Assembly (NCBI GenBank): GCA_029932195.1
Contig: JAOZQN010000003.1
Span: 1 to 45,644, forward strand
Reading direction: 5' to 3'
From: Bacteroidales bacterium
GTDB lineage: Bacteria > Bacteroidota > Bacteroidia > Bacteroidales > JAOZQN01
DNA length: 45,644 nucleotides
Under the pieces are notes generated by a model that worked only from the letters and a program-made list of their open reading frames with translations, was not told the DNA's origin and did not search any database. The translations under genes were made by a program, and so were the position numbers. Below, piece after piece: positions 973 through 39,935 of this stretch; within the stretch, counting starts at the first letter, position 1; every line of letters starts with the position of its first letter.

Positions 973-3093
973 TTACCAGTTAAATGTTTTTGCAAATTCT
1001 TGTTTTGAAAATTCAGCCTTTCCGCTGACTACTCCAATATCTAATGATTTTTCACTTGTTGTAGATATTTTTACTTCTACTGATTTTTCCATAAGATTAA
1101 AAGTTACCGATAAGCCTATGCCACTATCTCCACTTTTTATTCCTATTTTGTCTTCTATTGCTCCTTGTATTTTACTAGTAGCTTGAGATTTTGCTTCGCT
1201 AATAAGAACTGCTGCTTCTGGATCTTCATTTTTTTCTACAGCTTCTTTTACAGTTCCAAATACTTCTTGGATTTTTTGGAGTATTTCTACCACCTTCATT
1301 GTTCCTCCATGGGTAGTGCTTATTCCAATACCTAATTCGCTCTTAGATAATATTTTGTTAGTGTATTCTCTTGCATAAGAAAATTCACCAGATACAGGTC
1401 CTATGGAAATTTTTCCTCCAACACCAAATCCTTTTACATCTTTACCTTTTAGTCCTCCTTTGGTATCTTTATCGTAGCGTTTACTTGTGTTTCCTTTTAT
1501 GCCTACTTCGCCTTTAACAAGTGCTTTTTCTGATCCTATTTCTCCTTTGGCTTCTGCTACTCCTCCAAGTTCTACGTAGGCTTCCGAGTCTGCACCTAAA
1601 GCATCTTTTTCTATTGCTTCTCTAAATGCTGTGGCTTTTCCTGTGCCGCCCCAAGCCCAGTCTGCAAATGGTGATAGCCAAGTTGATTCTTTAAATCGTT
1701 TGTGCATACCATAAGAAATTAGGTTTAATGATTGTTTGGCAGTAGTTCCTTGTGCTTCTATGTATCCTCCAAGTTTTCCTGTTATTTTGAACATTGGTAT
1801 TTTAGCTCCTGCAATAAAGTCAAGTTGTGCACGAGTTTTAAAACTTCCTACTCCTTTTTCTGCCTCAAGAGTCATTTCACCACCAAGGAAGGCAATTCCT
1901 GTTGGTTCTATTGGTATCTCTACTTTTACATTAACTTTTCCGGCAGTGTTGTCGTCTGGTGCAAGTTTTTCTATTACTGGTGCCAGTCCTGTAAGAACGG
2001 AGTTAGCTGATTTGTCTGCATAATATTTTTTCAGTTCAGTTATTCTCTCGTCTCCTACGGACTCCATTGCATTTTCTTGTATTTTTTCGTCGCTTGCTCC
2101 TTTTGCAGTAAGGTTTACACCAGCTTCTGAAATAGCTGAATCTAAATAATTTCTAAATATTCTAAAACCGTAAGCTCTTTTTCTAAGGTCTTGGTCGTCT
2201 CCGTTATATTCCGCCCATACGTCTGCATATCCTCGTAGAACAATAAATTCTTTTTGTATTGCCCATAAGTTCGCTTCAGATAACAAGACAAGATTTGTTG
2301 CTTTTTTTCCTGCTTTATTTAAAAATATTTTATTATGAATATTTTCTAAAACATCTACAGACCTGTCTTTTGCTTTTCCAGAACTACTAAAGAAACCTTC
2401 ATAAGTTATATCTTTAAATGCTGATACAGAACAAAGTGTTCCTTTAACAAAAGGGCTCATTTTTGTGTCCGATTTAGCTTTATGTTCATTATATTCTTTT
2501 TCAGAAGTAGATCTTTGAACTGGTTGATTATTGGAATTTATATTATTTCCAGAAAAACTGTGAATACTTTTTGTTTGGATAGGATTATAGCGAGCAGCTT
2601 TTGCTCCCTGTGTATCTGCCTCGTTTTCCAAACTGGAATTATCATTAATATTAAATTTTCCAATTTGTTTGTTTGGCTGAACTTTGCCTTCTCTTTGTTG
2701 AACAACGTGGGTAAATTCATGCCCTATAAGTTCTTTGCCTGCTTGCGTATCTGGTTTAAATTGTCCAGGTGCAAAATGAACGTTGTTACCTTGTGTAAAT
2801 GCTAAAGCTCCTAAATCAGACGCAGTTTTAGAATCTTCATGAATATTTACATCAGAAAAATCTGTATCAAATGCACCTTGCATTTGTGTTATGAAATTTC
2901 CTGGCTCCTGCGTATTTCCAGAGTTAGTGTCTGTTCCGCTACCCTCTTTTAATTGAGTGGTTTGTTCTGTATTTACGGAAGAGTTATACTCTGGTGGATT
3001 TAACTGCTGTCCAATATCTGAATTATTATTTTCAGTATGGTTGGCTACTGCGTTATTGTTCTGGGTCTGAGTATTATTTTGTTTTGTTTCCAT
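973..3093 (-). CDS. DUF4157 (zincin-like HExxH) domain protein, eCIS-type effector-like, with a roughly 500-aa C-terminal region of unknown fold
   Basis: 706 aa. N/Q/T-rich low-complexity N-terminus, then AFTQGNNVHFAPGQF...LIGHEFTHVVQQREG, the characteristic DUF4157 (PF13699) signature. The rest is Gly/Lys-rich with no motif I recognise. Confidence 0.8.
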   Translation of the reverse strand: METKQNNTQTQNNNAVANHTENNNSDIGQQLNPPEYNSSVNTEQTTQLKEGSGTDTNSGNTQEPGNFITQMQGAFDTDFSDVNIHEDSKTASDLGALAFTQGNNVHFAPGQFKPDTQAGKELIGHEFTHVVQQREGKVQPNKQIGKFNINDNSSLENEADTQGAKAARYNPIQTKSIHSFSGNNINSNNQPVQRSTSEKEYNEHKAKSDTKMSPFVKGTLCSVSAFKDITYEGFFSSSGKAKDRSVDVLENIHNKIFLNKAGKKATNLVLLSEANLWAIQKEFIVLRGYADVWAEYNGDDQDLRKRAYGFRIFRNYLDSAISEAGVNLTAKGASDEKIQENAMESVGDERITELKKYYADKSANSVLTGLAPVIEKLAPDDNTAGKVNVKVEIPIEPTGIAFLGGEMTLEAEKGVGSFKTRAQLDFIAGAKIPMFKITGKLGGYIEAQGTTAKQSLNLISYGMHKRFKESTWLSPFADWAWGGTGKATAFREAIEKDALGADSEAYVELGGVAEAKGEIGSEKALVKGEVGIKGNTSKRYDKDTKGGLKGKDVKGFGVGGKISIGPVSGEFSYAREYTNKILSKSELGIGISTTHGGTMKVVEILQKIQEVFGTVKEAVEKNEDPEAAVLISEAKSQATSKIQGAIEDKIGIKSGDSGIGLSVTFNLMEKSVEVKISTTSEKSLDIGVVSGKAEFSKQEFAKTFNW

Positions 3094-3282: not shown

Positions 3283-4329
3283 TTAGTTGTTAAAATCAAA
3301 TCCGTATTTTTCTTTTATCTGTTTCTTTATCTCAATGGCAGACGGTAATTTCCCTTTAAATTTATCTGGTAATTGTCTTGTTAATTGATACTCTGCAACT
3401 CCTATTGGTTTGTTGAAGTCTTTTAGTGAGAATTCTACTTCAAAGTTGTCTTTTTCGGCACAAAGAATTATTCCTATTGGCGGATTTTCATCTTCCATTC
3501 TCACCTGTTGGTCAAGTAGATTTAGATATAAATTCAACTTGCTTGCATATTCCGCTTTATATTCCCCCGCTTTTAGTTCTATTGCTACAAGACATTTTAA
3601 TCCCCTGTGAAAAAACAATAAATCAACAAAATAGTCTTTCGTATTTCCTTTTAATTTATATTGGTTTCCGATAAATGTAAATCCGTAGCCTAATTCCATT
3701 AGCAACTTTTTTACATTGATAACCATCAATCTTTCTAATTCTCGTTCTTTAATTGGTTGTTTTACTCCCAGTAATTCAAGGTTATATACACTTTTCATTG
3801 CATTATCAGCCTGTTCGGATAAATGTTCTGGTAATGTTTCTCTAAAATTATGTTGTTTTGGATTTTCAAGATGATATTCGTAGGCATTTGCTTTTATTTG
3901 GTTTAATAATACATTTCGACTCCAAGCAAAACCTATTGTTGATTTCAGATAATATTCTCTTGATTTGTAATCTTTTAATTTTTGCAATATCAGAATATTT
4001 TGCCCCCAAGGAATGTCAAGTGCTAAATTGTGTAATTCGGGATAATCAACATATTCAGTGTAAAATTGTTTCATAAACCAAAGGTTTCTTTCCGAAAAGC
4101 TGATTGTTGTATCTGTAATTTCCTGTAAATCTTTGGCAAGCTGTTCTACTATGGATTTCCCCCAGCCATACTGTCTCTGTCTATCAACAATTATTTTACC
4201 GATATTAGAATATAATTCAATTTTTGCACGAATTAATTGACTTGATGCTTTTATTCTTGCTTTTTGAATTTCTTCTAATATTTGCTCTAAAAAATCTCTA
4301 TAATCAATATTTTTTACGATATTACTCAT
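3283..4329 (-). CDS. DUF1016/YhcG-family PD-(D/E)XK nuclease domain protein
   Basis: 348 aa. N-terminal YGWGKSIVEQLAKDL...FSERNLWFMKQFY block and C-terminal core VDLLFFHRGLKCLVAIELKAGEYK (D...ExK). A paralog lies at 27295..28404. Confidence 0.8.
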   Translation of the reverse strand: MSNIVKNIDYRDFLEQILEEIQKARIKASSQLIRAKIELYSNIGKIIVDRQRQYGWGKSIVEQLAKDLQEITDTTISFSERNLWFMKQFYTEYVDYPELHNLALDIPWGQNILILQKLKDYKSREYYLKSTIGFAWSRNVLLNQIKANAYEYHLENPKQHNFRETLPEHLSEQADNAMKSVYNLELLGVKQPIKERELERLMVINVKKLLMELGYGFTFIGNQYKLKGNTKDYFVDLLFFHRGLKCLVAIELKAGEYKAEYASKLNLYLNLLDQQVRMEDENPPIGIILCAEKDNFEVEFSLKDFNKPIGVAEYQLTRQLPDKFKGKLPSAIEIKKQIKEKYGFDFNN

Positions 4330-27232: not shown

Positions 27233-27339
27233 GGCTCACATTGAAAAGTTGAGGAGGAGTAATTACGAACCGTATCAAAAAGTTAGAAATTACTCTAAAT
27301 TTTACAACCCGTATGATCTACAATGATGCTGACATGTTT
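27233..27339 (+). repeat. B-type dispersed repeat (full copy) overlapping the 3' end of the DUF1016 pseudogene
   Basis: Near-identical to 11569..11675. The last 15 codons or so and the stop of ORF 27295.. are encoded by the repeat. Confidence 0.7.
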
Positions 27340-28404
27340 TTTCATATCGGACACGGCTACCGGTGGCGTTTGTTTTGTAGCGTTTTCTTTTTCGCTTAGT
27401 TCATTTTCAAGTTGTTCTACCGTTGGTAGTTTAGTTTTTATCTCATCTGGTATTGCTTTTGTTAATTGATAGTCACTTATTCCAATTGGTTTGTTTATAT
27501 CTCTCAGTGCAAATTCTGCTTCAACTCTGTCTTTTTTCTTGCAAAGTAAAATTCCTATTGTCGGATTATCCTCTTCTCGTTTCATCAATGTATCAACCGC
27601 AGACAAATAAAAATTTAGCTTTCCTGCAAACTCGGGTTTGAAAATTCCTGCTTTTAGTTCTATCACAACATAGCACCGCAGCTCTAAATGATAAAACAAT
27701 AAATCAATGTAATAATCTTTCTGACTGACTTTTATGTGATATTGGTTGCCGACATAGGCAAATCCTTTTCCTAATTCAATCAAGAAATCTGTAATATGCT
27801 TTGTTAATTTTGTTTCGATTTCTTTTTCGAGAGCATCGTCTTCTAAGCCAAGAAATCCGAATTGATACGGGTCTTTTATTGTTTCTTGTGCTAAATCTGA
27901 TTGAGGAACAGGCAAAGTTCTTTCAAAATTAGTTATTGTATTACCTTTTCTCTCAAAATAGTTTTTGTCAATTTGTATTTCAAGATTGTCTCTTGACCAA
28001 CCGTTTTCTATCGTAGCACTTGCATAAAATACAGCTTTATCAATATCTTTTATCCGTGAAATTATCAATCTATTATGTCCCCACGGAATTTGTGCCACAG
28101 CTTGTGGCACAAATTCAAATTGCTCTGAATAAAATAGATACCATTGACGCATTGCATAAACATTCCTTTTAGAAAAACCTTTTATATCGGGAAATGATTT
28201 TCGTAAATCCAATGCAAAATGCTCAATAAAGCTACTGCTCTAATCTGTATTTTTTTGTTTTTCAACAACTTCTTTTCCAATATCCCAATACAGCTCTAAC
28301 AAGACAGAGTTTACTGAAAGTGTAGCACGTAATTGAGCTGATTTGATTTTCTGCTTAACATTACTGAGCCAATTTTGATAATCTTTATTTTGTTTTAAAA
28401 TCAT
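27295..28404 (-). pseudogene. DUF1016/YhcG PD-(D/E)XK nuclease paralog with an in-frame TAG (28240..28242)
   Basis: ATG at 28404. 370 codons in one frame. Codon 55 is TAG where the paralog 3283..4329 has the conserved Trp (GWGKSIVEQLAKDL versus D*SSSFIEHFALDL). The nuclease core IDLLFYHLELRCYVVIELKAG is intact. Confidence 0.75.
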
Positions 28405-32678: not shown

Positions 32679-32679
32679 A

Positions 32680-33339
32680 TTATTGTAAATAATTTAGATT
32701 TATTAATGCCTTTCGTGCTTCATCTTTAAATAATTTAAAAGATGGTAACATTTCTAATTTTTGTTGTTTTATTTTTTTAGACAATGGAATATATAAGTCT
32801 GAAATTTTAAGTTTGTTTCTTCTTCTTGATTTATTTAGTTGAGATTTCACAAGGGCTTCTTCTATTACTTTTTTAGGATTGGCTATTTTTTCAATTAAAG
32901 TAGTTTTACAAGGCAGACCTAACTCTGAACAGGATTTATCTGTATTAATCTCTTTTAAAAAAAGTTCAATATCTGCAAGCATCCATGCTTCCGTCATTTG
33001 CACAGGAATAATAGCAACCAAATTTTTACAAGTATTTTTTGTGTTTTTTACTAATTCAAATGCTGGTTTTATTTTATTCTCAATAACTTTTTTATTAGAA
33101 GTAAAGTCTGAATCACAATGGACACAAATTATATCAAAATAATTATTTGTTGTTGCAATTGCTTGTATTTTTTTATTAAAAGATTTATTATTATTTGAAA
33201 CATGTATTGGTGGATGAATTTCTATAACAGTCTTACTTTCAAAAAGTAATGCTTCAAACGTTCTTTCTATAATTTTAGCAAGAAAACGCTCGTCTGTGCT
33301 ACCTTCGGTTGTGTATGCTATTTGTAAAATATTACTCAT
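32680..33339 (-). CDS. DUF4276-like protein with a Toprim-like E...DxD signature
   Basis: 219 aa. IAYTTEGSTDERFL (Glu), ICVHCDSD (DxD), PVQMTEAWMLAD. Lies 3 nt downstream of the ATPase gene. Confidence 0.65.
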   Translation of the reverse strand: MSNILQIAYTTEGSTDERFLAKIIERTFEALLFESKTVIEIHPPIHVSNNNKSFNKKIQAIATTNNYFDIICVHCDSDFTSNKKVIENKIKPAFELVKNTKNTCKNLVAIIPVQMTEAWMLADIELFLKEINTDKSCSELGLPCKTTLIEKIANPKKVIEEALVKSQLNKSRRRNKLKISDLYIPLSKKIKQQKLEMLPSFKLFKDEARKALINLNYLQ

Positions 33340-33342
33340 AAT

Positions 33343-34743
33343 TTAATTTAGGTTATTGCTTGTTTCTAAATATTTTTTCACTTCTAATTCTGTCATTTTT
33401 AATTCTTTAGTTGTTATAAAATCAAATTCCACTTGTCTATTTGCCTTTCTAACAGGTAATATTTTTGTAGTTTTAAATTGATACCTATTATTATTTTTTA
33501 TAGACATATTTGTTACTAATTTTGAAAACCATACAGAAATATTTTTAGAAAAATTATTTTCTTTAAAAAGTAAACCTACAAAGGTAGCAGAATGAGTGTT
33601 TACAATTATTTGTCGGAGTGGGAAATTAATATCCTCATCATCAAACAAATCCGAGGAAAGACCTGTCAACAATTCTATCATTGTGTTAATTCTAAATGGG
33701 TGGATTCCATTTTCGGGTTCTTCAAAACAAAGTGTTCCCATATATTTATTATCATATTTTAAGATACAAAGTATTAGTAATCTTAAAGTTCCTTCTGAAA
33801 GCACTCGTGATGAAAATTCTCTACCATCTTCACTAATTAATTTTATTATAAATTTATTTTCAGCGACTTCTTCTATAACATCAACTTTTATAAAATTTGA
33901 CAATAAATTATTAAGTTCTCGTGAAATATCATTTAAAATAGTTTCATCATCAGTTTTTAAGCGATATAATGCGGCTGCTAAATTTCCTCCAGTAGAAGTA
34001 ACAATATCCGATGCCATACGTGGACTTGGTTTACTTAATTCTTCAGGGTTTAGTTGTAAAAAATTCCAATTTATCATTTCTTCTTTTGTGGCAAATACAT
34101 GAGGAAAATTCACACTATCAACACTACTTAATAGTGTTTGAGGGGCATTATTTGCAATAATTTCTCGCCCTCCTTCACCTATGCTACCATCCTGAGATAT
34201 TCTAATATATTTTTTTTTGTTTTTTTCTTCTGTTGCAATATAAGGAACACTTCTTCTGCCATATACTTTTGGGCGGCGATTTTCTAATAATTTTTTATCA
34301 ACGTTTTTTTTTATCCACTTATCTTCTTGATGTTTTATAGGTTTTAAAACTTCATGAGTAATAAATAAATCATCAAAGCCTTTTGAATTTCGTTTTCGTT
34401 CAATTTCAAGTTCGTATCTGAGACGAGTATATTTTAGAGTGGAATTCTCACCCCAATTATCTGTTATACTGACATTTAAAAGTATTTCTACAGCAAGTTT
34501 TATTTCATGTGCAAGTTTTCCATTTGGATATTGTGTAAATTGTTCTCGTGCTTCTCCTCTTAAATTTACATTGTTAAAAGCAGTTTTTAAATCCATTTCT
34601 GCAAGATTCGATAATAATTTCATAGCATCAAATAGGTTACTTTTTCCTGATGCATTAGTTCCTGCAACAACAGTAAATGGTGTAAATTCCATTTTGAAAT
34701 TACTAAACGTTTTAAATCCGTCTATTTCTATTCTTGTTATCAT
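33343..34743 (-). CDS. ABC/SMC-type (AAA_15/AAA_21-like) ATPase
   Basis: 466 aa. MITRIEIDGFKTF...VVAGTNASGKSN (Walker A), LSEGTLR signature-like motif, Walker B LCFEEPENGIHP, H-loop VNTHS. Confidence 0.8.
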   Translation of the reverse strand: MITRIEIDGFKTFSNFKMEFTPFTVVAGTNASGKSNLFDAMKLLSNLAEMDLKTAFNNVNLRGEAREQFTQYPNGKLAHEIKLAVEILLNVSITDNWGENSTLKYTRLRYELEIERKRNSKGFDDLFITHEVLKPIKHQEDKWIKKNVDKKLLENRRPKVYGRRSVPYIATEEKNKKKYIRISQDGSIGEGGREIIANNAPQTLLSSVDSVNFPHVFATKEEMINWNFLQLNPEELSKPSPRMASDIVTSTGGNLAAALYRLKTDDETILNDISRELNNLLSNFIKVDVIEEVAENKFIIKLISEDGREFSSRVLSEGTLRLLILCILKYDNKYMGTLCFEEPENGIHPFRINTMIELLTGLSSDLFDDEDINFPLRQIIVNTHSATFVGLLFKENNFSKNISVWFSKLVTNMSIKNNNRYQFKTTKILPVRKANRQVEFDFITTKELKMTELEVKKYLETSNNLN

Positions 34744-34783
34744 AATTTTCTAATAATTTAAGTAGTTTAAAATTACTTATCAT

Positions 34784-36048
34784 TCATAAATCTATTTGTA
34801 AATTTTTCCGTCTGATAGGCATTGTCATGCACCTTGCACCACCTCCGCCTCGTGAAAGTTCCGAGCCTTTTATTGTTACTACTACTTTTTTGTGTTTTGC
34901 AACATCTTCTTTTCCCGAAATAACATCTTCTGCTTTTAGAACCGAAAATCCAGATTTATTTAATGCTTCAATAGTATAATTATTCCTCTCATAGCCAATA
35001 ATTTTACCTGGAGCAAAAGCGAAAAAATTTGCTCCACTGTGCCATTGCTCACGTTCTTGCATGTGTTTATTTTACCTCCACACAAAACAGGTTTCATTGG
35101 CATTTTGATACTTTTTAGAGCATCAAGAATATTATTAACTTCATTTATTGATATTATTTTCCCATTTTCCACAACCATGTGAATAGTTAAATATTTATTT
35201 AATTTTAGAATTAGTGGTTCGTAAATCATACAAACATCTCTATCTAAGAGAGTAAAAACCATGTCAAGATGTATAAACGACTCTGGTGTTTCGGGAAGTT
35301 GTTGGATAATAATATGTTTGGGAGCAGATTTACTTTCTATCTTATTTGCAATATAATCAATACCTTGCGATGTTGTTCTGATACCTGTTCCAATTATTAA
35401 CACATCTTTTCGAGCCACAAGAATATCGCCTCCTTCCATAGAAATTTTTGGATTAAAATATCGGCTAAATTGTGGATTTATAGTATTTGTAATAAAATTT
35501 GGGTGATGCTCAAATATTGCTTGCATTATTTGCGACTCTCTTTTTCTAACATGACTCGCCATTTTGTTGATTAACACAGAGTTTGATATTGCAGACGAAG
35601 CGTCTCGTGTAAAAAAGAAATTATGGAGCGGTTCTAACGAAAAATATTTATTGCTAAGATAATTTGTCAAAGAATTTTTTTGTCTCGGCAAACCTTCTAT
35701 TAATATTTTTGTCAGCTCACTTGCTTCCGACTCAAGTAAATAACTTTTAACTTCCTTTATATCACAATTTTCAGTAATTTTTGTAACTAAATCGGTTTTT
35801 ATACTTGGAGTTTTTAAAATATCAGATAACAAATCTCTAACCTGAAATGTATTAGTTACTTTTTCAAGAACCCCACTAAATTGAGTATATTCTTTTTTGG
35901 CAACAGATAAGTTTAAAATGTCGCTATATAAAGCCCTTTCAGCATTTTCGGGAGTCATGTTTTCTATTTCGTTGCCAGGAGTATGTAAAATTACTCCCTC
36001 CAACTCACCTATTTCAGAATTTATTTCAATTTCTATTTTCTGTTTCAT
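34784..36048 (-). pseudogene. Arginine deiminase-family gene interrupted by a single frameshift (or an assembly indel)
   Basis: N-terminal SEIGELEGVILHTPGNEIENMTP... in ORF 34960..36048. C-terminal EREQWHSGANFFAFAPG...GGGGARCMTMPI (catalytic Cys motif) in the overlapping ORF 34784..35062. The frame switch must occur within 35060..35076. Confidence 0.7.
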
Positions 36049-36135: not shown

Positions 36136-37323
36136 TTAAAATCCGATATATGCTTTTGGTAGTTCAAATGGATAAAAAATAGGTTTTGAGCGTTCGGAAT
36201 ATCTTCGTGGGGTTTTTCCTGGAGGACATTCTCCTTCGTGTCTTTTCTGAACTTCGTTGTTATTAAACCACCTTTTTTTATGATAAGTTAAATCTGTGGA
36301 GCAGTCTGTTTTTCTTTTGTTTGCAAAAATAATTACTATAGAAAATTCATGAGTTAAAAACACAGGGGAGTTTTTGAAACGAGTTGTAAAAGAACTTCCC
36401 CAATCTAAATTATACATCAGTTGTAGGCTCAAATATTTTCCAATAGCTGTTTCGTATCCAGCCGTAGCTACAATTTGATTTTTGTTAAAAACACTTGGAC
36501 GCTGAAAATTTTGTGCCGCAACACCAAAAATAAATGGTGCTCTGTATGCGAGCATTCCTACATTTATCAGCGAAAAATCGCCTTGTAATTGATATTTGAA
36601 ATTAGGATAGAACATTATTTTTGAGCGTTCTCTTAATCTGGTAACATGGTCTCGGTGATACATTGGGATAAAAATTCCGCCGTGTGCGGTATATTTTTCG
36701 GGATAAAAAACGCCTTTTGTTCCCAACGATGAGTATTCGTTGTTTTTTATGTGGTGCATCGCAAATCCAAGATTAATCCACGCAGGGTCTGTTCGCCTTA
36801 TGTCTATTGGAAATTGTGAGACAATTCCTGCACTTACATCAACAATATCAAAACTTGTGATTTCTAGTTCGGCAGCGGTTGGAATCCCTGAGTTTGCTCC
36901 ATCGTAAACGCTCAGTTGGTCGTAGAAAACGAGTTTGTCAAAATCGTAATTTGAACCAAAATAAGAGGCTTTTATTCCTGGACGGACAATAATTTTTCGT
37001 AAACTTCCAAATTTATAAGACAACATCAAATCGCCTTTATTTACCTGCAAGCCATCACTTAAAGTATTGTATGCACCACTAAAACCGAGTCCAAAATTGC
37101 CAATTGGCAAATCTGCCGAAACGGAATTATACATTGTTTTGTGCAAAGCCGAATACCATGTCAATTGGTTGTTCATGGAAATCCGAACCATATTTTTACT
37201 TCCTGCAAATCCGGGATTTGTGCTAATATTATTTACAACATTACTCGTTTGGAAAGCATCTTGTGCCTTCGCAAATAAAGAAAATGAGATAAATAAAATT
37301 AATAAGGGTAAAGTTTTTTTCAT
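36136..37323 (-). CDS. PorP/SprF-family type IX secretion system membrane protein
   Basis: 395 aa. Signal peptide, then AQDAFQTS...NPGFAGS and a beta-barrel-like alternating pattern. The usual partner of type-B CTD cargo. Confidence 0.65.
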   Translation of the reverse strand: MKKTLPLLILFISFSLFAKAQDAFQTSNVVNNISTNPGFAGSKNMVRISMNNQLTWYSALHKTMYNSVSADLPIGNFGLGFSGAYNTLSDGLQVNKGDLMLSYKFGSLRKIIVRPGIKASYFGSNYDFDKLVFYDQLSVYDGANSGIPTAAELEITSFDIVDVSAGIVSQFPIDIRRTDPAWINLGFAMHHIKNNEYSSLGTKGVFYPEKYTAHGGIFIPMYHRDHVTRLRERSKIMFYPNFKYQLQGDFSLINVGMLAYRAPFIFGVAAQNFQRPSVFNKNQIVATAGYETAIGKYLSLQLMYNLDWGSSFTTRFKNSPVFLTHEFSIVIIFANKRKTDCSTDLTYHKKRWFNNNEVQKRHEGECPPGKTPRRYSERSKPIFYPFELPKAYIGF

Positions 37324-37493: not shown

Positions 37494-39206
37494 CTAATCA
37501 GTTTTTATTGGAATAATATACGGTTCTTTTCCAGCAAAAATTATCGGAATTTTAATTATCTTTTCTTGTTCTATTTTATTGTCAATAAGTTCTTTGTAGT
37601 ATTTGTTTCTGTCTATTTGTGCCAAAGCATTTTTAATATTTTCATTAATTCGTTTTGTGAAATTGTTATCAAGTTCTTTGGTTTTCTGTTTTTCTATTTG
37701 TTTAATCTCAATTACAACTCCGTTTTTTGTTTTGTTGTGAGGTATTAATATAATGTCATATCTACCCTCCCCACTTTCTCCATTAGATTTAATAATGTAG
37801 TCATCACCAATAATTGCCAGTAAACCCAAAATGTAAGAATGATAAACATATTCATGATTTTTTGCTGTATCATAATAGCTGAATGTATCTCCCATTATTT
37901 TTTTAAAACCTGTTTCAAATTTCGCTATTTTATTGGTTATTAAATAATTTGCCGCATCTTGTAATAATGATTTTTGTAATTTTATATCCACTTTTAGCCA
38001 ATCTATAATTGTATCTTGAAAAATTGTTTTTATTTCATAGTTAGGAATAGTAAGTTCGTATTCTTTTCTTGATATTTGATTTTGGATAGTTAAGTATCCA
38101 CTATAAGTAAATAATGTCCACAATAAATCAGGATTTTTAGATAATTCGGGGAAAACAAAATTTGCTTCTAAGTCTCTTTTTATGCTTTCTCCGTTTATCA
38201 ATTTTAACACCTCTTCTCTAATATTTTCTGCATTTTTCTTTACTATTTGTTCTTTTATTAATTCATTGGCACTGGTATTTGTCCAAAAAGTTTTAAACCC
38301 TTCGTTTGCAGCAAGAACATAATTTAATATAGACCAAGGGTTGTAGATATTGGTAGTCTTTCCAAATTTATATCCATTATACCATTTTTTAATTTGCGAA
38401 TATTTTGTATCTACCTTAAAATCAATAGTAATTTGTTTAACTTCTTCTTCTGTAAAACCAAATTTATCAGAAAATTTATTGTCAAGAATTGAATAAACAC
38501 TAATATTATTCAATCCTGTAAAGATACTTTCTTTTGATACTCTGAGTATTCCTGTAATTACTCCTTTGTAAAGACTACTGTTATCTTTTAACACTCCACT
38601 CAACAGGCTACGCATAAACGAAATTGCATCGTTGTAAAATTTATTATGGCTTGCCTGAATTGGTGTATCGTATTCATCAATTAGAACTATAACTTTCTCG
38701 TTATGATAACGTTGTAAATATTTACTTAACTGTTTTAAACTTGTTTCAAATTCTGTTTGGCTTGCTTTTTTTATAAGGATATTCTGAAATATTGCCTTTT
38801 CATGATTTTTCAGTATATTACTCTCCAACAAATAATCATGATTAGAATATAAATCTACGATTTCAGAAACAATAAATTCTAAACAACTTTGCCATGTATC
38901 TTTTTTTGCATCTTTGAATGTCAAATATATTACAGGATATTTTCCACAATGTTGTTTTACATCATCTTCTGTTTGCCAGATTTTTAAGTCTTCAAACAGT
39001 TTTTTATTTTCTGATTCGCTTTTATCAAAAAAGTAGCGTAGCATTGATAAATTCAACGTTTTTCCAAATCTACGAGGGCGAGGCAATAATATTACTGCTT
39101 TTTGTGCTGTTAATACCTCTTCTATAAGTAATGATTTATCAACAAAATAGTTATTATTTTGTATTATATCTTTAAAGTCGGAATGTCCAAGATTTAGTTC
39201 TTTCAT
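37494..39206 (-). CDS. AAA-ATPase-like (PF09820-type) N-terminal domain fused to a PDDEXK_9/DUF1703 nuclease-like domain
   Basis: 570 aa. LGHSDFKDIIQNNNYFVDKSLLIEEVL...LPRPRRFGKTLNLSML at the N-terminus. C-terminal GEGRYDIILIPH...GVVIEIKQ (D...ExK). Confidence 0.75.
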   Translation of the reverse strand: MKELNLGHSDFKDIIQNNNYFVDKSLLIEEVLTAQKAVILLPRPRRFGKTLNLSMLRYFFDKSESENKKLFEDLKIWQTEDDVKQHCGKYPVIYLTFKDAKKDTWQSCLEFIVSEIVDLYSNHDYLLESNILKNHEKAIFQNILIKKASQTEFETSLKQLSKYLQRYHNEKVIVLIDEYDTPIQASHNKFYNDAISFMRSLLSGVLKDNSSLYKGVITGILRVSKESIFTGLNNISVYSILDNKFSDKFGFTEEEVKQITIDFKVDTKYSQIKKWYNGYKFGKTTNIYNPWSILNYVLAANEGFKTFWTNTSANELIKEQIVKKNAENIREEVLKLINGESIKRDLEANFVFPELSKNPDLLWTLFTYSGYLTIQNQISRKEYELTIPNYEIKTIFQDTIIDWLKVDIKLQKSLLQDAANYLITNKIAKFETGFKKIMGDTFSYYDTAKNHEYVYHSYILGLLAIIGDDYIIKSNGESGEGRYDIILIPHNKTKNGVVIEIKQIEKQKTKELDNNFTKRINENIKNALAQIDRNKYYKELIDNKIEQEKIIKIPIIFAGKEPYIIPIKTD

Positions 39207-39257
39207 TTTTTTATAAATTCTATTTGTTCTTATTTTTCAACTCTTTATTTTTGTTTA

Positions 39258-39935
39258 TTATTCAAATTTTTTATAATTCTCATTCCAATACTTATTTAAA
39301 AAATCCCATTTATCTCCAAAATTAGGAATATATTGTAAGAAAGGAAGAGTTTCAATCTCTACTTTATTTCTTTTATCATCGTTAGTTATTTTATAAATAT
39401 TTATTTCTTGTGGGTATTTATCCGTTTCAAATTCGCAACCTTGTCCCCAAATATATCCTTTTTCTACTATTTTATAATTTTCGATAGTAAATAATCTACT
39501 TTCCCAATTAAAATCGGCACATCCAGCTCTACTGTATGAATAGTAAAAAGATGAATTAGACCTTAATTGAATTGCATCAGGAAATGACATATAATTATTT
39601 ATAAATCTAAATGAATTATTTTCACTATCAAACAAATACAATAAATATGTTGGATTGTTTCCAATATACGTCAACATTAAATCCAAATTTTTATCTTTGT
39701 CAAAATCAATCAATTCAATTTTAAATAAAGCATCACAATCATGTATGGTGTCAATAGTAGTTATTTCTGAATTGCAAAAGACAGAAAATAACATTGAATT
39801 GTTATTAATTTTTTTTGTATTGATTTTAATTGAATTATTATTGACTATCAGTGTTGTATCTAATAAAAAATTTGATTGAGAATAACTAAAATTTGCAATT
39901 GAAATTAAAAAGACTATCAATAATGTTTTTTTCAT
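39258..39935 (-). CDS. Secreted hypothetical protein
   Basis: 225 aa with a signal peptide (MKKTLLIVFLISIANFSYSQ). IDFDKDKNLDLML is faintly FG-GAP/VCBS-like. No confident family. Confidence 0.55.
   Translation of the reverse strand: MKKTLLIVFLISIANFSYSQSNFLLDTTLIVNNNSIKINTKKINNNSMLFSVFCNSEITTIDTIHDCDALFKIELIDFDKDKNLDLMLTYIGNNPTYLLYLFDSENNSFRFINNYMSFPDAIQLRSNSSFYYSYSRAGCADFNWESRLFTIENYKIVEKGYIWGQGCEFETDKYPQEINIYKITNDDKRNKVEIETLPFLQYIPNFGDKWDFLNKYWNENYKKFE

Follow-up and report, generated by a model that had tools for sequence, protein, structure and literature searches.

Dyads of an OLD-type ABC ATPase and a nuclease were found in a 2026 survey to be a pervasive and previously described theme. 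HEC-01 ("Hma-embedded candidate") was defined as an ABC ATPase encoded with a TOPRIM-like protein, and the metal-binding site of the latter aligns with that of B. pseudomallei OLD (Payne et al. 2024, 10.1101/2024.01.29.577857). Published phage assays disagree: the representative of Payne et al. gave no protection to E. coli K-12 against the BASEL and classic phages, but a representative in a cold-seep study (Nat Commun 2026) gave E. coli B protection from one or more of T4, T5, and T7. The window analyzed here, the whole stretch of 45,644 nucleotides (nt) of contig JAOZQN010000003.1 (GCA_029932195.1) from a Bacteroidales bacterium, carries such a pair, placed by its profile matches in the PADLOC family HEC-01, which is already catalogued as a candidate anti-phage family. 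It is probably a horizontally acquired cassette, most likely directed against phages or other mobile genetic elements, with an ABC ATPase as sensor and a nuclease as effector.

The window pair resembles published HEC-01 in that both proteins match the family hidden Markov models (HMMs) over their full length, with the same gene order, strand, and adjacency, and combine an ABC ATPase with a small TOPRIM-like partner; unlike the original examples, it stands alone in a string of type IX secretion system (T9SS) genes rather than inside an Hma or restriction-modification (RM) system. Several other systems share one or both components. In MADS, Mad3 and Mad4 are an AAA_15/21 ABC ATPase and a DUF4276-family protein, and MADS3-4 has been listed among ABC ATPase plus TOPRIM systems (Maestri et al. 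2024; PMC11464382); the window ATPase is homologous to Mad3, but the window unit has only two genes. The comparative genomics of Menshen (PMC12065111) placed DUF4276 and RloB in the Toprim superfamily and identified Mad4 as a DUF4276 homologue. In some NsnC variants of Menshen, DUF4276 is the predicted effector nuclease beside the AAA_15-type ATPase NsnB; however, Menshen has three genes (NsnA, NsnB, and NsnC) with DUF4276 as a domain of NsnC, whereas in the window it is a stand-alone protein of 219 amino acids (aa) in a two-gene unit. The class 1 OLD protein P2 Old and the class 2 protein GajA of Gabija belong to the same ATPase superfamily (Old, E = 4.5e-12; P-loop head of 6p74), and their ATPase and Toprim chemistry has likewise been proposed to act together, but there the ATPase is fused with an OLD-like_TOPRIM domain and in the window the genes are separate. 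The Toprim domain of P2 Old has no detectable similarity to the small protein of the window, and PF20469 (OLD-like_TOPRIM) was matched in Pfam by the P2 Old control but by neither open reading frame (ORF) of the pair, nor by 44 DUF4276 homologues.

An earlier sequence-only reading of this locus knew of no experimental validation for an ATPase-DUF4276 pair and gave classification as an existing named system as one of the outcomes that would refute it. PADLOC classifies the pair as HEC-01, which has been tested with one negative and one positive outcome, and on both points the reading is outdated. No new class is opened, as the architecture, the family name, and the Toprim hypothesis have all been published. 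The window adds to this known family a clean, intact natural example; new here are its nucleotide-resolved insertion and an indication that a trio of T9SS genes, CHU_C/PKD cargo-PorP-PD40, is a landing zone for defence cassettes.

Family identity and conservation of the pair

The ORF table and the sequence agree with the gene positions, the intergenic gaps, and the motifs first reported for the locus. The genes for PorP, arginine deiminase (arcA), the ATPase, the DUF4276 protein, and the PD40 protein form one string on a single strand; both genes of the pair start with ATG. The ATPase gene is separated from the DUF4276 gene by 3 nt (TAA-att-ATG), and the latter from the PD40 gene by 1 nt (TAA-t-ATG). 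The features are as follows, with L016 denoting a metagenomic contig of a close relative that has the same synteny as the window.

32691..34792, minus strand: inserted segment, 2,102 nt, consisting of a 40-nt leader and the two genes (blastn of L016 7800-8145 against the window)
34744..34783, minus strand: leader from the arcA stop to the ATPase ATG, 40 nt, AT-rich
33343..34743, minus strand: HEC-01A, ABC-type ATPase with an OLD/SMC/RecF-like head, 466 aa
32680..33339, minus strand: HEC-01B, DUF4276 protein, predicted metal-dependent nuclease, 219 aa
29784..32678, minus strand: resident PD40/OmpA-like (PorE/CHU_0125-like) envelope gene, 964 aa, upstream spacer exchanged for the cassette
34784..36048, minus strand: resident arcA, upstream of the insertion, split by a 1-nt deletion
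36136..37323, minus strand: resident PorP/SprF gene, forming the upstream boundary of the variable slot occupied by arcA and the cassette

The ATPase matches PADLOC HEC-01A (PDLC04184) with E = 8.3e-139 and 461.5 bits, residues 1-463 aligning with positions 1-461 of the 464-position profile. Weaker PADLOC matches are to AriA (1.8e-28), mad3 (1.6e-21), AbiLi, and Old (4.5e-12), which bears out the relationship to OLD and PARIS ATPases proposed initially, and the Pfam matches are AAA_21 (94.5 bits) and AAA_15 (69.4 bits). The motifs GTNASGKSN, LSEGTLR, LCFEEPENGIHP, and NTHS are all present, with the Walker A motif at G28-N36, the signature LSEGT at 315-319, the Walker B motif from LCFEE to E342, and the H-loop at H384. 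Among 38 ATPase homologues, G28, N30, A31, G33, K34, S35, and N36 are invariant in the Walker A region, as are S316, E317, G318, T319, E341, E342, P343, E344, N345, G346, and H348 across the signature and Walker B regions, and N382, H384, and S385 around the H-loop. The sequence is consistent with an ABC-type rather than an AAA+ fold, because the only matches of the ATPase profile in the PDB are the N-terminal P-loop heads of SMC, RecF, Rad50, and OLD (6p74). No close relative has a solved structure, and the ATPase had no PDB match in phmmer.

The small protein scores 35.4 bits against DUF4276 (PF14103), above the gathering cut-off of 30.2, and the family named in the sequence-only reading was correct. 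It matches two HEC-01B models near full length, PDLC04210 (E = 9.4e-38, residues 5-218) and PDLC04212 (E = 6.7e-37), and contains the motifs TTEGSTDE, HCDSD, and QMTEAWMLAD. In 44 DUF4276 homologues, E12, G13, D16, R18, C72, H74, D78, C104, E117, and W119 are invariant and D76 is conserved in at least 90%. All 44 match DUF4276 in Pfam at E <= 10 (best E 2.6e-11).

Word-indexed searches returned more than 5,000 homologues of the ATPase and 161 of the small protein, both from Bacteroidota, Chlorobiota, and cyanobacteria. An exhaustive profile search (E <= 1e-3) for the DUF4276 partner gave 1,891 representatives at 50% identity; HEC-01 is thus widespread, with at least that number of clusters. 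Each of the best 150 profile matches is a stand-alone protein with a length near 220 aa, and the four that were scanned all match HEC-01B.

The two genes are an obligate, co-inherited adjacent pair and form a mobile unit. The ATPase gene is directly followed by the DUF4276 gene in eight of eight unrelated contexts, including the window, and the two genes are 2-3 nt apart or overlap by 4 nt. The other contexts are:

L001: alcohol dehydrogenase, pair, cytidylyltransferase, with an RM-type methylase and HipBA nearby
L004: polyphosphate kinase (ppk), pair, exopolyphosphatase (ppx)
L005: pair, CN hydrolase
L007: pair with an AbiU2 HEPN protein and a reverse transcriptase nearby
L008: MacB/FtsX, pair, ThuA
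L026 and L029: two more contexts, unrelated

At least 16 more pairs of ATPase and DUF4276 homologues were found on contigs of matching size with concordant identity ranks. No integrase or transposase gene lies beside the pair, and comparison of six loci revealed neither conserved non-coding ends nor repeats at its flanks. In GC content the pair equals or falls below its flanks. In the L004 locus (7907..12979), where the pair lies between ppk and ppx, the two gaps measure 18 and 34 nt; as in the window, the insertion occupies a very short spacer between housekeeping genes of the same orientation, and no mobility gene is close by.

Insertion between arcA and the PD40 gene

Comparison of neighbourhoods strongly supports the proposal, made from the sequence, that the pair was inserted ahead of a pre-existing envelope-protein gene, because the corresponding sites in L016 and in the more distant contig L011 are empty. 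Identity between the window and L016 is 87% for nitroreductase, 83% for the CHU_C/PKD cargo, 89% for PorP, 86-90% for arcA, and 83% for PD40. In L016, an intact arcA (417 aa) is followed by a 58-nt spacer and then by the PD40 gene, without the pair; in L011, the order is cargo, PorP, 50 nt, and PD40, again without the pair. In a third contig, L012, PorP and PD40 are separated by a different three-gene set. The borders of the insertion could be placed at the nucleotide level: in blastn, homology with L016 (87%) stops on the left at window position 34793 and restarts on the right (89%) at 32690, 12 nt before the PD40 ATG, so that 43 of the 58 spacer nucleotides have given way to the 2,102 nt of the cassette. 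At the right-hand border, window 32679..32690 (ATTTACAATAAT) and L016 8013..8024 (ATTTATATTAAT) are identical at 10 of 12 positions just before the PD40 ATG, which could be microhomology used in integration or chance similarity in AT-rich DNA. An ancestral pair that was later deleted in L016 is unlikely, because L011 and L012 also lack it.

The close packing of the three genes on one strand, with gaps of only 3 nt and 1 nt, and the nearby T9SS genes (PorP and CHU_C cargo) would also be expected of an ancient housekeeping or envelope operon in which the ATPase, the DUF4276 protein, and the PD40 protein belong together. The PD40 protein has a signal-peptide-like N-terminus (MKKTIPLILILIFSLQAVAQ), PD40 repeats, and partial matches to the PorE and CHU_0125 OmpA-like models. 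However, its orthologues in L016 (83% identity), L012 (56%), and L011 (47%) occur without the pair, no homologous pair in the contexts other than the window precedes a PD40 gene, and the cassette has defined borders. An ancient three-gene operon is refuted by the empty sites and retains next to no probability; an inserted cassette accounts for the locus.

The cassette removed nearly all of the native upstream spacer of PD40. Scans of the leader and junctions for sigma-70-type promoters gave scores no higher than those of shuffled sequences, the Bacteroidota -7 motif TAnnTTTG is absent at both junctions, no intergenic terminator was found on the coding strand, and the 40-nt leader is not conserved with the leaders of homologous cassettes. 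Because the native spacer is nearly gone and neither junction has a promoter-like element, transcription of PD40 probably begins upstream and runs through the cassette, or else begins at an unrecognized promoter within it. The window and L016 are useful as before-and-after loci for the spread of two-gene defence cassettes that lack a recombinase, and for possible transcriptional rewiring of genes behind cassettes that have landed.

The arcA gene on the other side of the insertion is probably a pseudogene in the window. A 1-nt deletion at about 35073 (GGAGGT-AAAAT compared with GGAGGCGAAAAT) divides it into two overlapping ORFs relative to the 417-aa orthologue in L016, and its stop is altered from TAA to CAA, extending the reading frame four codons into the inserted DNA. 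The split sequence is also found in two further assemblies, L009 (NCBI) and L010 (Logan).

Proposed function and its alternatives

PARIS is the best mechanistic template for the pair. In that system, a hexamer of AriA sequesters AriB until a phage protein is detected in an ATP-dependent manner; the nuclease is then set free and cleaves tRNA. PARIS has the same two-gene split between ATPase and nuclease and its ATPase is homologous to that of the window (AriA HMM, E = 1.8e-28), but the window ATPase is far better matched to HEC-01A and the partner is DUF4276 rather than DUF4435; the absence of any AriB or DUF4435 match for the small protein in PADLOC and Pfam upholds the distinction drawn initially. 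HEC-01A is probably translationally coupled to HEC-01B, a predicted Toprim-like metal-dependent nuclease. By analogy with PARIS, an oligomer of the ATPase would bind and restrain this nuclease; nuclease-NTPase systems have been found generally to form complexes. A cue from the phage, sensed by way of ATP binding or hydrolysis, would then license the nuclease to cut nucleic acid (either DNA or tRNA), and the infection would be stopped, possibly as abortive infection. The pair is also associated with defence genes: the two slots of the same T9SS trio hold Septu and an NsnB-like trio in L012, and defence-type genes lie near the L001 and L007 pairs.

A confident AlphaFold2 (AF2) model of the small protein built with 44 homologues (pLDDT 90.7) begins with an alpha/beta core of four strands and ends in a helical domain. 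Each of the core strands, at residues 3-11, 39-41, 70-74, and 107-110, is followed by a helix. E12 comes straight after strand 1, D76-x-D78 after strand 3, and E117 is at helix 4; in the model, this placement of Glu...DxD is the Toprim layout in both motif and topology. The Toprim-type nuclease of the sequence-only reading stands to this extent, with the acidic residues at Toprim positions, but fold and profile searches gave it no statistical support. The Toprim assignment is suggested by motif placement and by two published analyses, and a statistical match to Toprim was not reproduced.

Several results weigh against the proposed anti-phage interpretation with its nuclease effector. In Foldseek searches of the PDB, the best E-value for the full-length model was 1e-2 (transcarbamylases, small GTPases, and lumazine synthases) and that for the core alone (residues 1-131) was 6e-3 (lumazine synthase, TM ~0.45); no match reached E < 1e-3, the folds were generic alpha/beta folds, and Toprim proteins were not enriched. 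Foldseek of the full-length model against BFVD gave nothing significant, and the DUF4276 profile had no match among PDB sequences in hmmsearch. Alignment of DUF4276 with the P2 Old Toprim domain by hhalign, with Old as a single sequence, as a 6-sequence profile, or as an 8-sequence profile against a 249-sequence DUF4276 alignment, gave probabilities of 0.6-3.8%; because the Old profiles are shallow (Neff ~2), this fails to confirm a Toprim domain without refuting one. A homologue search with the Old Toprim fragment returned only five fragments, the fragment matched nothing on plasmids in tblastn, and scans of viral contigs found close Old relatives only. The invariant C72, H74, and C104 (CxHxDxD plus C104) beside the acidic motif are atypical for Toprim. 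The flanks of homologous cassettes are mostly housekeeping genes rather than defence islands, and the promoter and terminator scans gave nothing that bears on co-transcription of the cassette with PD40. To these can be added the negative assay of Payne et al.; the positive cold-seep result is from one representative, which may or may not be similar to the window member, and the text gives no effect size. As a separate observation, C72, H74, and C104 might form an extra metal site in the DUF4276 family.

The same searches provide the case for a different DUF4276 function, such as another Cys/His/Asp-dependent enzyme or a regulatory alpha/beta domain that processes nucleotides or small molecules with the ATPase. 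None of the structural or profile searches gave a significant Toprim match, the best structural matches are generic 2-1-3-4 alpha/beta folds (mainly lumazine synthase, TM ~0.45), the invariant cysteines and histidine adjoin the acidic residues, and at the Pfam threshold used above a weak DUF3226 match was found in 12 of the 44 members but a named Toprim family in none. Such a function is quite improbable. It is unlikely, though slightly less so, that the pair is a selfish addiction module resembling a toxin-antitoxin (TA) system, in which the ATPase restrains a toxic nuclease with no benefit against phages. In favour of this are the Pfam label of AAA_21 ("putative AbiEii toxin, Type IV TA system"), the compact and mobile nature of the cassette, the housekeeping character of several loci without other defence genes, and the failure of one HEC-01 representative to defend its host. 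However, another representative did protect against phage, the same slots in relatives hold bona fide defence systems such as Septu, and addiction can coexist with defence by abortive infection. The pair could also be the Mad3/Mad4 module of a larger MADS or a unit inside an Hma/RM system, since the ATPase matches antiphage_MADS3 (NF047739) with 151.9 bits and PADLOC mad3 with 1.6e-21, and HEC-01 was first found inside Hma systems. The score is far under the 420-bit equivalog cut-off, PADLOC mad4 is not matched by the small protein at E <= 0.01, and no methyltransferase, helicase, or other MADS or Hma gene is present in or beside the 2.1-kb insertion. A MADS or Hma component was rejected on this score and these missing partner genes, and its probability is minimal. 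A stand-alone HEC-01 cassette with a probable anti-phage role is preferred over these alternatives.

The T9SS trio and other genes of the window

In this Bacteroidales lineage, the trio CHU_C/PKD cargo-PorP/SprF-PD40/OmpA-like may be a hotspot, not described before, at which small defence cassettes integrate, although this is offered tentatively and is somewhat doubtful; the indication comes from four genomes with at least four independent insertions. The trio has two slots, cargo/PorP and PorP/PD40. Both are empty in L011, with a cargo/PorP gap of 29 nt. In L016, cargo/PorP is empty (140-nt gap) and an 812-aa protein gene and arcA lie between PorP and PD40. In the window, HEC-01 is in PorP/PD40 and a PDDEXK_9 ATPase-like gene is in cargo/PorP, and in L012, Septu PtuA/PtuB is in cargo/PorP and the NsnB-like trio is in PorP/PD40. 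If the trio is a hotspot, cassettes arrive without a recombinase, repeats, or conserved ends in very short co-directional spacers, the resident upstream region is replaced, and expression of an envelope/T9SS gene becomes physically coupled to a defence cassette.

Window 37494..39935 (minus strand), between the CHU_C cargo and PorP genes, is a second insertion in the trio and encodes a 225-aa ORF with no family match and a 570-aa AAA-ATPase_like/PDDEXK_9 protein. The PorP/PD40 slot of L012 (5811..9639) encodes a 656-aa protein, a 409-aa AAA_15 ATPase (PADLOC NsnB, 2.3e-29), and a 208-aa protein; it could be a Menshen-like system with A and C components that current HMMs miss. The protein of about 812 aa encoded between PorP and arcA in L016 (4159..6597) has no Pfam or PADLOC match. 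A homologue with 68% identity is encoded downstream of PD40 in L012 (13939..16380) and none in the window, and the gene looks like another mobile single-gene element around the trio.

Further genes were noted elsewhere in the window. The first ATPase operon, at 11674..13736 (minus strand), encodes a 508-aa AAA_15 ATPase (PDC-M29A, 1.2e-26; AriA, 1.1e-38) and a 179-aa partner (PDC-M29B, 2.9e-09), and is another catalogued candidate defence pair. Two genes encode YhcG/DUF1016 PD-(D/E)XK proteins (PADLOC PDC-S02). The one at 3283..4329 (minus strand, 348 aa) is full length; the one at 27295..28212 (minus strand) lacks about 65-80 N-terminal residues and is probably disrupted, and the gene calls of L009 include a separate 54-aa DUF1016_N piece (about window 28240..28404). 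Genes of the extracellular contractile injection system (eCIS) type are also present on the minus strand, encoding an eCIS core domain protein (973..3093), an AAA ATPase (7836..9173), and a T4 gp19-like tail tube protein (9269..9709); they are interspersed with ORFs without a family match and with a YhcG nuclease gene.

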